From a virus: 10,606 bases of DNA. Under the pieces are notes generated by a model. The model saw nothing but the letters and a program-made list of their open reading frames with translations. It did no database searches and was not told the DNA's origin. The stretch lies in UHGV virus genome UHGV-0084128. One strand, 5' to 3'. The position numbers were made by a program, and so were the translations under genes. Below are positions 457 through 5,828 of the stretch, piece after piece; positions within the stretch are counted from its first letter, which is position 1; every line of letters begins with the position of its first letter.

Positions 457-521
457 TTTATTTATTCATATATGAAAACAATGTAACCAATATTCGAATT
501 GAAGAACTGAAAGAACACCAA

Positions 522-545
522 GCCGCCTGATGGCGGTTTTTTATT
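522..545 (+). terminator. Rho-independent terminator downstream of the zinc-ribbon gene
   Basis: GC-rich hairpin GCCGCC-tgat-GGCGG followed by TTTTTTATT, immediately upstream of the next gene's SD. Confidence 0.55.
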
Positions 546-556
546 GGAGACAAGAA

Positions 557-901
557 ATGTCAGATTTGGCTATGAAGGTTTTGAAATGGCAATCGACTGG
601 CGATGTCGGCATCAGTAGCGCAACTCTTGCCTCAATCGCATGTGGACTGAAAAAGAATATCTATGGTCATCACTTCGGCGCTCCACATGACGCAGCAGAT
701 TTCCGACGATGCGTTGCACTTGTTGAGCAGATTCCAGAAATCAGAGATTCATTCGACAAGGTTGCAAAGCGCGTTCCGGCATTCAAAGGCATCCTCAACG
801 AATGGGATTCCCTCGTTGCTCTGTTGAAGTCTGAAATGAAGATACACGGAAACAAAGCACCAGAGACTTACAGAAGAATTAGCGAGTTACGCAAGGACTA
901 A
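557..901 (+). CDS. Hypothetical early-left protein (114 aa)
   Basis: ATG at 557 with SD GGAGA (546-550); ORF-track start at 530 would lie inside the terminator hairpin, so the internal ATG is preferred; no signal peptide or motif I can name. Confidence 0.6.
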   Translation: MSDLAMKVLKWQSTGDVGISSATLASIACGLKKNIYGHHFGAPHDAADFRRCVALVEQIPEIRDSFDKVAKRVPAFKGILNEWDSLVALLKSEMKIHGNKAPETYRRISELRKD

Positions 902-960
902 CCACAGCCTCACACTCGATGAGGCCAGTTCATTTCTCAAGATATCCAGACCTACCATCG

Positions 961-983
961 CCGCATCAATGCGGTTTTTTATT
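961..983 (+). terminator. Rho-independent terminator between the 114-aa gene and xis
   Basis: Hairpin CCGCA-tcaa-TGCGG followed by TTTTTTATT. Confidence 0.55.
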
Positions 984-990
984 GCCTGAT

Positions 991-1006
991 TTGCAGGTTC
1001 GATTCC
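991..1006. other. 16-nt segment TTGCAGGTTCGATTCC matching the T-arm of tRNA-Arg (argW)
   Basis: Exact 16/16 match to my recollection of E. coli argW nucleotides spanning the T-stem 5' half, T-loop and first two 3' T-stem bases; flanks do not continue the tRNA, so this is not a tRNA gene. Confidence 0.5.
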
Positions 1007-1025
1007 CTATTCGGAGATAGCACTC

Positions 1026-1226
1026 ATGCAACACGAACTACAGCCTGATTCACTGGTTGATTTGAAATTCATCATGGCTGATACTGGCTTTGGTAAAACC
1101 TTCATCTACGACCGGATTAAGTCTGGCGACCTGCCGAAAGCCAAAGTTATCCACGGACGCGCAAGATGGTTATATCGTGACCATTGTGAATTCAAAAATA
1201 AGCTCTTAAGCCGCGCCAATGGGTAA
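1026..1226 (+). CDS. xis: Excisionase / recombination directionality factor, AlpA/TorI family
   Basis: 66-aa protein MQHELQPDSLVDLKFIMADTGFGKTFIYDRIKSGDLPKAKVIHGRARWLYRDH…; winged-helix excisionase signature; SD GGAGA 8 nt upstream; sits directly upstream of attP and int. Matches my recollection of TorI of prophage KplE1. Confidence 0.85.
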   Translation: MQHELQPDSLVDLKFIMADTGFGKTFIYDRIKSGDLPKAKVIHGRARWLYRDHCEFKNKLLSRANG

Positions 1227-1242
1227 AATAGCGGGTAAAATA
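1221..1242 (+). repeat. Two direct copies of GGGTAAAATA (candidate Int arm-type or Xis binding sites), P-arm side of attP
   Basis: GGGTAAAATA-gc-GGGTAAAATA; the first copy overlaps the xis stop codon. Confidence 0.6.
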
Positions 1243-1299
1243 TTTTTCACATCTAAAAAACACCATTCCAATCAATCCCCTGCCTCGTCAAGTAGATGT

Positions 1300-1315
1300 C
1301 TGCAGGGGACACCAT
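1300..1315. other. Candidate attP core: match to the 3' terminal 15 nt of tRNA-Arg (argW), including CCA
   Basis: CTGCAGGGGACACCA(T) matches the 3' T-stem bases, acceptor 3' strand, discriminator and CCA of argW (from memory); lies between xis and int and is flanked on both sides by GGGTAAAA repeats. Confidence 0.6.
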
Positions 1316-1409
1316 TTATCAGTTCGCTACCATCCGTACCAGTCCGCAAAATCCCCTGAATATCAAGCCTTCCGTAGATTCACAGTTCGTCATGGTTCGC
1401 GTAAGATCG

Positions 1410-1439
1410 TTGACAGCCGCACTCCATGACGGGTAAAAA
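1410..1439 (+). promoter_or_regulatory. Candidate int promoter overlapping the arm-type repeats
   Basis: TTGACA (1410-1415), 18-nt spacer, TAAAAA (1434-1439); the -10 overlaps GGGTAAAA at 1431-1438, suggesting autoregulation. Weak -10, so low confidence. Confidence 0.3.
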
Positions 1440-1475
1440 GTGGATAAAATAATTTTACCCACCGGATTTTTACCC
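1431..1475. repeat. Four further copies of the GGGTAAAA motif (two direct, two inverted) at the int 5' end, P'-arm side of attP
   Basis: GGGTAAAA (1431-1438), GGATAAAA (1442-1449), TTTTACCC (1453-1460), TTTTACCC (1468-1475); the last abuts the int ATG. Confidence 0.6.
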
Positions 1476-2633
1476 ATGCTCACCGTTAAGCAGATTGAAG
1501 CAGCAAAGCCGAAAGAAAAACCATACCGCCTACTCGATGGTAATGGCCTGTACCTTTATGTCCCTGTATCCGGGAAAAAGGTATGGCAGCTTCGCTACAA
1601 GATTGACGGTAAGGAGAAAATCCTGACCGTCGGAAAATATCCGCTTATGACTTTGCAAGAGGCAAGGGATAAAGCATGGACTGCGAGGAAAGACATCTCG
1701 GTTGGCATCGATCCGGTAAAGGCGAAAAAGGCTTCGTCTAACAACAATTCATTTAGTGCGATTTACAAGGAGTGGTACGAGCACAAGAAGCAAGTCTGGT
1801 CAGTAGGCTATGCAACTGAACTTGCCAAAATGTTTGATGACGACATTTTACCCATCATCGGCGGCCTTGAAATTCAGGATATTGAGCCGATGCAACTGCT
1901 GGAAGTAATCCGCAGATTTGAAGATCGCGGCGCAATGGAGAGAGCCAACAAAGCCCGCAGAAGATGCGGCGAGGTTTTCCGTTACGCTATTGTTACTGGT
2001 AGGGCTAAATATAACCCGGCACCTGACCTTGCTGACGCCATGAAGGGATACCGCAAGAAGAACTTCCCGTTTCTTCCTGCAGACCAGATCCCGGCATTCA
2101 ACAAAGCACTGGCAACATTTTCAGGAAGTATCGTATCGCTCATTGCGACCAAAGTTTTACGCTACACAGCCCTAAGAACGAAAGAGCTTCGTTCCATGCA
2201 ATGGAAGAACGTCGATTTTGAAAACAGGATTATCACTATCGACGCCAGTGTGATGAAGGGACGCAAGATTCATGTTGTCCCGATGTCGGACCAGGTGGTT
2301 GAACTTCTCACTACGCTAAGCTCCATCACTAAACCAGTATCAGAGTTTGTTTTTGCCGGGCGCAACGATAAGAAGAAGCCAATCTGCGAGAACGCGGTAT
2401 TGCTTGTGATCAAACAAATCGGCTATGAGGGTCTGGAAAGCGGTCACGGATTCAGGCATGAATTCAGCACGATTATGAACGAGCACGAATGGCCTGCTGA
2501 TGCTATTGAAGTGCAACTGGCACATGCCAACGGCGGATCTGTGCGCGGGATTTACAACCATGCTCAGTATCTCGATAAGCGCAGAGAAATGATGCAGTGG
2601 TGGGCAGACTGGCTTGATGGGAATGTATCATAG
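1476..2633 (+). CDS. int: Tyrosine site-specific integrase, P4/IntS-like (385 aa)
   Basis: N-terminus MLTVKQIEAAKPKEKPYRLLDGNGLYLYV… typical of the P4-type integrase arm-binding domain; C-terminal catalytic motifs (…HGFRHEF…, …RGIYNHAQY…). ATG at 1476 preferred over the ORF-track GTG at 1440, giving the 385-aa length I recall for IntS. Confidence 0.95.
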   Translation: MLTVKQIEAAKPKEKPYRLLDGNGLYLYVPVSGKKVWQLRYKIDGKEKILTVGKYPLMTLQEARDKAWTARKDISVGIDPVKAKKASSNNNSFSAIYKEWYEHKKQVWSVGYATELAKMFDDDILPIIGGLEIQDIEPMQLLEVIRRFEDRGAMERANKARRRCGEVFRYAIVTGRAKYNPAPDLADAMKGYRKKNFPFLPADQIPAFNKALATFSGSIVSLIATKVLRYTALRTKELRSMQWKNVDFENRIITIDASVMKGRKIHVVPMSDQVVELLTTLSSITKPVSEFVFAGRNDKKKPICENAVLLVIKQIGYEGLESGHGFRHEFSTIMNEHEWPADAIEVQLAHANGGSVRGIYNHAQYLDKRREMMQWWADWLDGNVS

Positions 2634-4925: not shown

Positions 4926-5828
4926 TCAGTAGTTATGTACTGAAGGAGGTAATTCTTTATTCTTAAGTCTCATCCATGCGGAAAGATTCGTTGGTCCGTC
5001 TGGCTCATTAATATCAACATCTCGTGTGTGATTGATTAAAACGTCTCTCGCCATTCCGATAACATACGAGAATTCATGGCCATAGTCGTAGCATCTGCCG
5101 GAATAGTTCGATTGAATTTGTTTTAGCGCCAGATACAGTTCGCGGAATAATGCCTGTGAGCGGTTGGCATAATCCCATAACCATACAAGGCTGTTTGCTT
5201 CTTTTGCAGAAAGCTCGTTGGTTTTCTTCTCTTGTTTGCCGATAAATTCACCTTCAAGCACTACCCTGTGGATGTACTCTACGGCTTGCGGTATCTGAGA
5301 TGCATCAAGCTCTTCAATACTTTCCACATTGAAACGCTGATGAATCATTGCATAAGCTTCTGGGTACATTAGATGCTTTTTGCTGACTAGCATATTTACA
5401 GCATCACGAAGCTGAGTCCTGTCATCAACAGATGTTTTCTTACGTGCATTTTCTGCCTTTCCCTTTGTCCAGTAGTCATGCAGTACAGTAAAGCATTCTT
5501 CCTGGTACTGAATCAGTTTATCACGGATGTCAGCACGAACTTTCTCAGGGTTGATGCTGAACAGCCATCCATTTAACTTCTTCAAAGGAAGGCAGAGTAG
5601 CTTACGAAGCTTCCCATCAGCGGCAACCATGTTCATATGAACACAGTTGAATTTGCTAATCTGCTTCATGAGTTTTGTTTGCTGCGTTGACCAGCTCATT
5701 CCAAGGTTTTCAACGATTGGCTTCATCGCAACATATGCAACTCCGGCAGCCATGGCGGTGATAATTTGCTGACCGTTGAATGGTACATAAGAGGTGTTCA
5801 CTGCTTCTAAAATTGCTATACTATTCAT
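4926..5828 (-). CDS. ant: Antirepressor Ant (300 aa)
   Basis: [26 protein letters not shown]… matches my recollection of the P22 Ant N-terminus; start at the internal ATG (5826-5828), which gives the 300-aa size expected for Ant, rather than the ORF-track start at 5894. Confidence 0.9.

Follow-up and report, generated by a model that had tools for sequence, protein, structure and literature searches.

The window, that is, the whole 10,606-nt stretch of viral DNA analyzed here (UHGV virus genome UHGV-0084128), contains a 16-nt piece of the tRNA-Arg gene argW upstream of xis (block 1), and this piece lies in the xis 5' leader as a further, partial copy of the argW T-arm, distinct from the attP core. 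Block 1 is the E. coli-lineage form of a 10-14-nt box, CAGGTTCGATTYCC. We put the probability at roughly 0.55 that this box, which is additional to attP and selected in two families of argW modules, is a cis-regulatory element for the recombination directionality factor (RDF) encoded by xis. The leader box probably helps to control excisionase production, and it would do so by limiting or gating the expression of this factor, which decides on excision. Excision of KplE1, HK620 and Sf6 is thought to depend almost wholly on whether the RDF (TorI) is made.

The sequence-only reading of this DNA had proposed that two neighboring pieces of argW bracket xis, and alignment with the K-12 gene (GTCCTCTTAGTTAAATGGATATAACGAGCCCCTCCTAAGGGCTAATTGCAGGTTCGATTCCTGCAGGGGACACCA, taken from NZ_LR881938; L006:1301-1375) bore this out. 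Block 1 (TTGCAGGTTCGATTCC) matched E. coli argW positions 46-61 exactly and the downstream piece (block 2, CTGCAGGGGACACCA at 1300-1314) matched positions 61-75 exactly, the two having one C in common, at position 61. The 293 bp between them were correctly read as containing xis with its own Shine-Dalgarno (SD) sequence, and also include the P arm. The further claim that such a 16-nt match is tRNA-related and not due to chance held as well: by chance, a window this long would contain about 3e-4 exact 16-mer argW matches, and no shuffle regenerated the 16-mer even when two mismatches were tolerated. Each block is single-copy in the window. No tRNA genes were detected in the window by ARAGORN, and a search of Rfam (E up to 10) gave nothing relevant; among the leaders, those of the Serratia and Edwardsiella types alone form a T-arm hairpin. 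The two-block arrangement was also found in K-12 KplE1, HK620, Sf6 and IME10 (conservation of the upstream 16-mer in KplE1, Sf6 and HK620 had been suggested as a check, and the arrangement is identical in all three), in about a quarter of the complete E. coli genomes (1,399 of 5,426) and in all E. coli-type IMG/VR loci examined. The earlier remark that this split arrangement had not been described agrees with our literature search, in which neither the 14-mer nor the 16-mer string was found. The IntS-TorI studies consulted (PMC2951348, PMC3509656) make no mention of a T-arm box upstream of torI, and the box falls outside the KplE1 att fragments used in them.

Table 1. Features of the xis-attP-int region of the window
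Feature	Position	Strand	Remarks
Intrinsic terminator, GCCGCATCAATGCGG + T-run	960..981	+	Ends upstream lambda/434-type ORF114-like gene
TTGC-N5-TTGC	982..994	+	cII-binding site of pI promoter according to the HK620 record
Block 1	991..1006	+	argW 46-61: T-stem 5' strand, T-loop, then CC
T-arm box, CAGGTTCGATTCCC	994..1007	+	In xis leader; family consensus CAGGTTCGATTYCC, invariant GTTCGATTYCC
SD of xis, GGAGA	1014..1018	+	7 nt past the box; complementary to UUCC at box end
xis / torI / hkaC, 66-aa RDF	1026..1226	+	66/66 identical to K-12 TorI
P-arm integrase arm-type sites, GGGTAAAA x2	1221..1240	+	TAAA motif of arm sites (PMC2951348)
TCCCCTGC, inverted copy of core bases GCAGGGGA (1302-1309)	1276..1283	+	18 nt left of GCAGGGGA
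Block 2 = attP core, CTGCAGGGGACACCAT	1300..1315	+	Last 15 nt of argW + T (PMC2951348)
TorI sites I1, I2 (CAGTTCGC, CAGTCCGC)	1320..1347	+	Mapped from coordinates in PMC2951348
TorI sites I3, I4, I5 (CAGTTCGT, TGGTTCGC, AAGATCGT)	1383..1410	+	Adjoin PintS -35 (PMC2951348)
PintS promoter: TTGACA 1410-1415, TAAAAA 1434-1439	1410..1475	+	PMC2951348
intS, integrase, 385 aa	1476..2633	+	381/385 identical to K-12 IntS

The known IntS/TorI recombination module (KplE1-HK620-Sf6) is present in the window as its phage form, with the gene order xis - attP - int (Table 1). Compared with KplE1 (CPS-53), HK620 and Sf6, the core, TorI (identical), IntS (99%), the five TorI sites, the arm-type sites, PintS and the gene order were all the same, and no difference was observed in the module itself. 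Block 2 is the 16-bp attP core, the site of crossover with argW. The same 16 bp, common to the argW 3' end, form the attP core of KplE1, HK620 and Sf6 (PMC2951348), and the junctions of E. coli prophages end at block 2 (1314-1316). TorI sites have been published as 8-bp elements with the cores GTTCG, GTCCG or GATCG (PMC2951348); the five sites in the window form two blocks on the int side with the published spacing. The P' arm-type sites that overlap PintS are GGGTAAAA, GGATAAAA and two copies of TTTTACCC. The promoter PtorI was called uncharacterised in the same study (PMC2951348).

Two blocks that abut in argW with a 1-nt overlap might suggest, as the sequence-only reading proposed, that an xis cassette was inserted into an ancestral attP with 30 nt of contiguous argW homology and thereby split it. 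This view is largely refuted and we give it next to no weight. In relatives, the sequence beside the core is T-loop-like ([A/T]TTCGATGTA|TGCAGGGG) and matches 6-8 of 12 tRNA bases; thus, attP keeps its own degenerate T-loop, TTCGATGTA, next to the core, and nothing is missing from it. The upstream copies of Serratia and Pantoea type continue into CCTG and so repeat bases that the core already has. Moreover, the supposed insert holds the P-arm integrase sites, which are essential to attP, as well as the inverted arm TCCCCTGC, which covaries with the core in relatives (CCCCTACA/TGTAGGGG in L098 and TCCCTGCA/TGCAGGGA in L099). Relatives that lack the box have xis at the same place, and the tandem box copies described below would not be expected from an insertion. 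The contiguous argW form was found in none of 50,697 phage records and 5,426 E. coli genomes, in which all full-coverage matches were two-piece and spanned about 431 bp. Finally, excision in vitro reached about 80% with a 135-bp attR without block 1 (PMC2951348, PMC3509656); this fragment begins at approximately window position 1202. The only B-arm DNA of the attL substrate in these assays was GCTAATTGCAGGTTCGATTCC (PMC2951348, PMC3509656), which corresponds to block 1 plus 5 nt. On the basis of the absent contiguous form, the T-loop retained beside the core and the in vitro data (PMC2951348), the split attP was rejected.

The box lies about 19 nt upstream of the xis start codon, with a constant 7 nt between it and the SD, in prophages of E. 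coli, Citrobacter, Enterobacter, Serratia, Pantoea, Edwardsiella and Hafnia-like hosts. Among 16 lineages, the mean pairwise identity of the box was 0.90, compared with 0.86 for xis codon positions 1 and 2, 0.60 for codon position 3, 0.36 for the left flank and 0.35 for the spacer. When IMG/VR was searched for the box followed by an SD and ATG, 118 of the 120 matches were upstream of TorI-family genes and the other two were real tRNAs. A second family of argW-targeting modules, with an Int about 60% and an RDF 39% identical and with different arm sites, carried the box in 25 of approximately 39 distinct leaders. The 5' CAG is variable in this family, so that only GTTCGATTYCC remains invariant. 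One of its subgroups, which has TTACC instead of GTTCG in its P'-arm repeats, still carries the box, indicating that the box is tied to argW targeting and not to one RDF. Tandem box copies were present in three lineages (L130-132, L134 and L091), and the box was absent from Klebsiella phage Chronis and from L095, L097, L098, L296 and L316-321. On this comparative evidence, the box is under purifying selection in two related argW module families across Enterobacterales. Its conservation amid random flanks, together with its duplication and deletion, indicates from the alignments a selected yet dispensable cis element in the RDF leader, of tRNA origin or mimicry.

The leader was also found with differing RDF genes, the mosaic joint being at the ATG in L171, L183 and L219. 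It should be noted that the leader is a mosaic boundary unit, and horizontal exchange could account for part of the conservation of the box. The Edwardsiella and Hafnia-like boxes have ACAGG and their cores imply GCAGG; thus, box position -4 does not follow the host tRNA. The T-stem of the Proteus host tRNA is ACAGG/CCTGT (one host tRNA compared). No T-loop copy was found upstream of P4 vis, and a scan of IMG/VR for GGTTCGAATCC followed by an SD and ATG returned 102 real tRNAs, 18 undetected or degenerate tRNAs and no xis-like genes. Two other candidates were discarded: a 16-nt direct repeat (81%) between leader positions 984-999 and xis codons 6-11 (1043-1058), which is at chance level (about 0.6 pairs expected), and a long-range T-stem that would join 993-997 to 1299-1303 over the xis ORF, which is structurally meaningless.

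The second explanation offered from the sequence was that block 1 is a scar, or a secondary recombination site, from an earlier integration event. In a fuller form, it would be a functionless leftover of an old aberrant excision or of secondary-site integration at argW, or else a site that Int still uses. One half of this idea, the origin from a tRNA, is plausible: the likeness to tRNA is clear, block 1 is located at a mosaic boundary formed by the left end of the conserved module, and several lineages do without it. As an account of what block 1 is now, however, we regard it as improbable. With the box 0.90 identical across lineages and the adjacent bases 0.35, the box is not decaying, and the purifying selection on it does not agree with a neutral relic. 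The 7 nt after the box match the overlap sequence TGCAGGG at only 1 of 7 positions. A chimeric query joining the argW 5' part, block 1 and xis had no full-length match in 5,426 E. coli genomes; by this search, none of them has a prophage junction at the upstream 16-mer, where junctions had been expected if it were used. Block 1 is also unnecessary for recombination in vitro (PMC2951348, PMC3509656). Block 1 probably takes no part in strand exchange.

A different function for this region is annotated in the HK620 and Sf6 records, in which a CII-activated pI promoter with TTGC repeats (982-994) and a cII site are placed here. Window positions 930-987 are homologous to the terminator and the true pI/CII site (TTGC-N6-TTGC) of phages 434 and HK022, and the terminator in the window is the homolog of the one preceding pI/xis in these phages. 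The terminator and first TTGC are therefore shared with lambda, 434 and HK022 at the same place relative to xis; in contrast to these phages, the T-arm box here stands in place of the -10 region and of the second TTGC, with N5 spacing instead of N6. K-12 and many others have TTAC for the first TTGC, no -10 element was found, a consensus scan detected no promoter at 980-1025, and other genera keep the box without the TTGC repeats. In addition, such a promoter would co-express xis at lysogenisation. The annotated promoter is thus very improbable, and the box finding corrects the pI/cII annotation in both reference records. A small hairpin has the TTGC halves as its arms (GCCTG at 984-988 and CAGGT at 994-998); for this hairpin, a compensatory CCTGT/ACAGG pair was observed in L148.

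With regard to mechanism, we tentatively prefer the possibility that an IntS-family integrase binds the box as a mimic of the attB B arm. The core-binding and catalytic domains of the integrase would contact the box, which in most lineages could act jointly with a weak putative inverted half-site 7 bp away (GATTCC-N7-GAGATA; compare GATGTC-N7-GACACC in the core). This pair has a core-like 6-7-6 geometry, and each half matches the consensus at 4 of 6 positions. Occupancy of the box by integrase would then damp read-through transcription into xis. Such read-through into torI is reportedly under the control of Rho, as Menouni et al. are said to have found in 2013. A more specific form of this proposal, in which the attB arm has been deliberately copied over the xis ribosome-binding region and binding by the integrase, its specificity set by the same argW T-arm sequence, gates the RDF (an 'attB-arm mimic operator'), seems doubtful to us; it would explain why the box is retained in two families that have only the argW target in common. 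Several observations stand against integrase binding: a lone B-type half-site would be a weak integrase target, core-type sites are ill suited to direct tandem duplication, and the second family's box varies at the 5' CAG, with only GTTCGATTYCC constant. Viable phages and several lineages without the box also argue against an essential role.

The protein acting on the box might instead be TorI itself, the box being a putative TorI site for feedback control of xis. GTTCG, the TorI pentamer, occurs at 997-1001 on the + strand, as in I1-I5 (motif G[TA][TC]CG), the box of L151 (CAGTTCGA) resembles I1, direct tandem copies occur in three lineages, and PintS is already repressed by TorI. On the other hand, TorI sites carry C or T at the place where the box has an invariant A (its position 8), the conserved stretch runs on through ATTYCC, past an 8-bp site, and the box is kept where the P'-arm repeats are [CG][AG]TTACC and the RDF recognition helix differs. 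The leader would also offer one site only, compared with the five bound cooperatively by TorI. We consider an RDF operator rather unlikely, and less likely than either the B-arm mimic or control at the RNA level.

Control at the RNA level is a possibility that we rank nearly as likely as the B-arm mimic. Here the box would be the 5' arm of a predicted hairpin (GGUU-CG-AUUYCC / GGAGAU-RA-AACC) covering the xis SD: its UUCC would pair with the GGAG of the SD and its GGUU with AACC before the AUG, so that leaky read-through transcripts would be translated poorly into the RDF, and the likeness to tRNA would be an exapted scar. The fixed 7-nt distance between box and SD is consistent with such pairing, as is the movement of the leader between unlike RDF genes, to which it is joined at the ATG. 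The proposed hairpin was paired in 86.5% of cells, compared with at most 64.5% in slid controls, and the predicted probability of SD-box pairing was 0.6-1.0 in 10 of 12 lineages. The ATTTCC variant would form a perfect 6-bp helix with GGAGAT, and leaders of the Citrobacter type (z -3.2) and Pantoea type (z -2.3) folded significantly better than shuffles. However, seven of nine leaders, that of the window among them (z -0.9), folded no better than shuffles, no compensatory covariation was seen in the hand-drawn hairpin, and RNAalifold predicted no pairs in a consensus structure of the leaders. The AACC partner is lost in E. coli-type, L133, L130 and L091 leaders that keep the box, and a hairpin would leave unexplained both the tRNA identity and the invariant CG, which falls in a predicted internal loop.

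The box shares some properties with known systems. Identity blocks, the partial tRNA duplications at attR of tRNA-integrating elements that were reportedly described by Williams in 2002, are likewise tRNA 3'-part sequence carried by the element. In contrast to them, the box holds the tRNA part 5' of the crossover, present as a second and isolated copy; the element need not supply this part. Like the boundary sequences (bsq) found at mosaic joints in lambdoid and P22-like phages, the leader is situated where modules meet (the Sf6 record marks bsq2 here), and one leader precedes RDF genes that share just 39% identity, joined to them at the ATG. A bsq, however, accounts neither for the match with the target tRNA nor for conservation limited to 10-14 nt amid random flanks. 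Recombination proteins are known to regulate transcription via att sites, as for PintS (IntS and TorI), P4 Vis and P2 Cox. The candidate site in the xis leader differs from these in being a B-arm copy away from attP, and we know of no description of such an arrangement as a regulatory site.

Thus, a box identical to the argW T-arm, and conserved to the same degree as coding positions, stands directly before the start codon of the RDF, including in K-12, and this provides a concrete, mutable handle on torI control. If the preferred integrase reading were true, the box would represent a new means by which a prophage couples RDF expression to integrase occupancy, and a true attB-arm mimic operator would be a regulatory logic undescribed for temperate phages.

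K-12 argW, taken from a RefSeq chromosome, ends in ...TTGCAGGTTCGATTCCTGCAGGGGACACCA, in line with the sequence-only reading, and the two strings which that reading had matched to it were found where it had placed them, each occurring once in the window. The upstream string (block 1) corresponds to argW 46-61 and the downstream one (block 2) to argW 61-75, one C being common to both. In 10.6 kb the expected number of exact 16-mer matches to argW is about 3e-4, which bears out the claim that such a match was unlikely to arise by chance. The two-block arrangement, including the upstream 16-mer, is not peculiar to the phage of the window: it stands before torI in K-12, about 1,400 of the 5,426 complete E. 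coli genomes share it, and no E. coli-type IMG/VR locus lacks it. Some E. coli chromosomes (matches H41 and H93-H96; for example, NZ_CP100996, strain ET151) contain an uninterrupted phage-form xis-attP-int junction, which points to prophages in tandem at argW. The argW D-arm (positions 9-20) also occurs as the 12-mer AGTTAAATGGAT at 5567-5578 on the minus strand, within a minus-strand ORF; with unrelated flanks and an expectation of about 0.08 such matches, it is probably a chance match.

The phage of the window is P22-like, with IME10, HZ41, HK620 and Sf6 as close kin, and the window covers its immunity-distal end. Two terminator 'boundary' units, HK620-type (about 521-546, within 493-556) and 434/HK022-type (960-981, within 940-990), bracket the ORF114-like gene, which HK620 and Sf6 lack; situated between repeated GCGG-T-run-ATTG joints, this gene clearly illustrates mosaic insertion.

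Features of the xis-attP-intS region and its surroundings (window coordinates; TorI sites placed by transfer of the coordinates in PMC2951348)
Feature	Position	Strand	Remark
HK620-type terminator	about 521-546		leftmost of the features
ORF114-like gene, lambda/434-type	about 557-901		followed by its own terminator
434/HK022-type terminator of ORF114-like gene	960-981		
Block 1	991-1006		
xis/torI	1026-1226		product identical to K-12 TorI
attP			between xis/torI and intS
Block 2	1300-1314		
Five TorI sites	1320-1347 and 1383-1410	+	GTTCG, GTCCG, GTTCG, GTTCG, GATCG in order
intS	1476-2633		IntS 381/385 identical to K-12 IntS
Tailspike gene and other virion genes		-	right of intS

Block 2 is the 16-bp core CTGCAGGGGACACCAT of the KplE1/HK620/Sf6 module (PMC2951348), which is annotated in the HK620 and Sf6 records, and prophage junctions in E. 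coli genomes stop at 1314-1316. PintS and arm-type sites lie to the right of the TorI sites. An 8-nt inverted repeat, TCCCCTGC (1276-1283) and GCAGGGGA (1302-1309), surrounds the C side of the core; the 18 nt between its arms exceed a normal overlap region, and a third copy of the arm, TCCCCTG, is located in the P' arm (1352-1358). The core 3' end ACACCATT (1309-1316) has a direct copy in the P arm, 49 nt further upstream (1260-1267), which is not conserved in other genera.

One of the two explanations offered by the sequence-only reading was an ancestral attP with about 30 nt of contiguous argW homology, split by a xis cassette. This was rejected on the following grounds. First, the phage side of the core in relatives is [A/T]TTCGATGTA directly followed by TGCAGGGG, a degenerate T-loop adjoining the core in which 6-8 of 12 tRNA bases match (3 expected); the corresponding E. 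coli segment, GTAGATGTC, matches at 5 of 12 and has drifted further. Second, the Serratia- and Pantoea-type upstream copy runs on as ...GATTCCTG(A), bases that are also present in the core. Third, the 293-bp 'insert' is integral to attP rather than a cassette, because it holds the P-arm Int sites and the inverted arm TCCCCTGC, which in relatives covaries with the core (tRNA acceptor/T-stem sequence; CCCCTACA/TGTAGGGG in locus L098 and TCCCTGCA/TGCAGGGA in L099). Fourth, a synthetic query for the contiguous form (terminator-block1-block2-P') drew no match from either the 5,426 E. coli genomes or the 50,697 phage records. Finally, block 1 is dispensable for recombination, since a 135-bp attR starting inside the torI 3' end, at about 1202, gave about 80% excision in vitro (PMC2951348, PMC3509656). 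The suggestion that block 1 itself serves as a recombination site fared no better: the deletion junction argW5'-block1-xis, also searched with a synthetic query, was absent from the same genomes and phage records.

Block 1 is the E. coli form of a leader box, CAGGTTCGATT[C/T]CC, that was identified in Enterobacter, Citrobacter, Serratia, Pantoea, Edwardsiella and Hafnia-like prophages. In TorI-family loci of several genera its position is constant (GGAG follows after 7 nt and the ATG after about 18-19 nt), and its neighbors vary freely on the left (TTGC, TTCC, TGAC, TTTA or CCCA) and on the right (CTATTC, CAAACC, CTGTCC, CGGTAC or CATT). Over 16 lineage representatives, mean pairwise identity was 0.90 for the 13-mer box, 0.86 for xis codon positions 1+2 and 0.60 for position 3, compared with 0.36 and 0.35 for the flanks. 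These values show the box to be under purifying selection; thus, of the earlier alternative of a scar or secondary site, the tRNA relation stands and the decaying scar does not. A pattern scan of IMG/VR for box, SD and ATG yielded at least 120 matches; among the matches listed, 118 of 120 precede TorI-family genes, and the other 2 are real tRNAs with an integrase gene after them. Tandem box pairs occur in three independent lineages (L130-132, L134 and L091, with periods of 16, 13 and 13 nt, respectively). The box is missing from several lineages; in L095, L296 and L301 it has evidently been deleted between CCTGG and C[CT]GG, and in the isolate Klebsiella phage Chronis xis is translationally coupled to the upstream gene. 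The box is thus useful but not essential, given its tandem copies in some lineages and its loss from several others. Two contigs labeled as Actinomycetes and Parachlamydiaceae MAGs (L092, L106) carry enterobacterial TorI modules with the argW core, probably due to contamination or mis-binning. In Proteus hauseri (L104:3960-4067), int comes after tRNA-Arg(CCU), and xis and int converge. The T-stem of this tRNA reads ACAGG/CCTGT, and immediately behind the tRNA stand two CTCAGTTCGC repeats in tandem, which are TorI-type sites.

The IMG/VR scan also revealed a sister family of argW-targeting modules (L171, L183, L219, L281-L360), which shares with the TorI modules the argW target, an IntS-type integrase (Int about 60% identical to IntS) and the core CTGCAGGGGAC[A/G]CCA. 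Its RDF, starting MRELRDDSLIDMKFM..., is 39% identical to TorI, and its arm sites are GGGCATAA, versus GGGTAAAA in TorI modules. About 25 of the ~39 distinct leaders contained GTTCGATT[C/T]CC-spacer-GGAGAT...ATG; because the box varies here in its 5' CAG, its invariant part is GTTCGATTYCC. P'-arm repeats differ among subgroups (TTACC, GTTC[G/T] or GAAC[C/G]), a pattern that suggests RDF specificity diversifying on a constant core.

A box that is tRNA-like, fixed in position, conserved, dispensable for recombination and tied to argW-targeting modules may act as a regulator of RDF expression. How it would do so can be read in several ways. A tentative explanation is that it mimics the integrase B arm as a candidate copy of an IntS-type core site. 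The published attL substrate (PMC2951348, PMC3509656) has no B-arm DNA other than GCTAATTGCAGGTTCGATTCC, which is block 1 plus 5 nt, so the IntS B core-type site has to fall inside this segment. The box of all lineages has the B-type GATTCC instead of the attP C-type GATGTA/C, and in most lineages GATTCC-N7-GAGATA has the 6-7-6 layout seen in the core (GATGTC-TGCAGGG-GACACC); however, each half matches at just 4 of 6 positions, the site would be lone and weak, and the tandem duplications are direct. Slightly less probable is that the box covers the SD in the xis transcript. GGUU-CG-AUUYCC could pair with GGAGAU-RA-AACC, paired cells reached 86.5% (slid controls, at most 64.5%), and in most lineages the SD is predicted to pair with the box. 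On the other hand, no covariation was found, RNAalifold predicted no structure, only 2 of 9 leaders folded better than shuffles (z = -0.9 for that of the window), and the box is kept where its 3' partner is lost. That the box is an RDF operator appears unlikely: it contains the published TorI pentamer GTTCG, but it is kept in a sister-family subgroup (L297, L306, L312) whose P'-arm repeats are [CG][AG]TTACC rather than GTTCG, and which would therefore have a different RDF specificity. Similarly improbable is a box without present function. With regard to origin, the copy could derive from aberrant excision, a secondary-site event or decay of a larger tRNA segment, and, judging by the Serratia-type leader (TTCCAGGTTCGATTCCTG), the ancestral copy may have covered the entire T-arm.

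In the HK620 and Sf6 records, 981-1019 is annotated as a pI promoter whose cII site lies at 982-994. Window 930-987 is homologous to the 434/HK022 terminator and true TTGC-N6-TTGC pI site, but the TTGC spacing at 982-994 is N5 rather than N6, TTAC often replaces the first TTGC (as in K-12), no -10 element was detectable, and the TTGC repeats are missing from other genera that retain the box. The two TTGC halves are better read as the two sides of a short hairpin, GCCTG/CAGGT (984-998), in which L148 has a compensatory change (CCTGT/ACAGG). Leader positions 984-999, GCCTGATTTGCAGGTT, resemble xis codons 6-11, GCCTGATTCACTGGTT (1043-1058), at 13 of 16 positions, no more than chance would give in a region of this size.

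Previous studies of the KplE1/HK620/Sf6 module cover the core, the att sites and the TorI, IntS and IHF sites, and describe PtorI as uncharacterised (PMC2951348, PMC3509656); neither mentions a T-arm copy upstream of torI. None of the papers searched contains the 14- or 16-mer box strings, in agreement with the earlier remark that the split arrangement had not been seen described. Menouni et al. 2013 is said to report that torI is expressed through read-through transcription restrained by Rho, which fits with a leader element modulating read-through expression. The 16-mer represents the version, in this phage, of a previously undescribed box in the RDF leader of argW-targeting modules; the box is under selection and either derives from the tRNA or mimics it.
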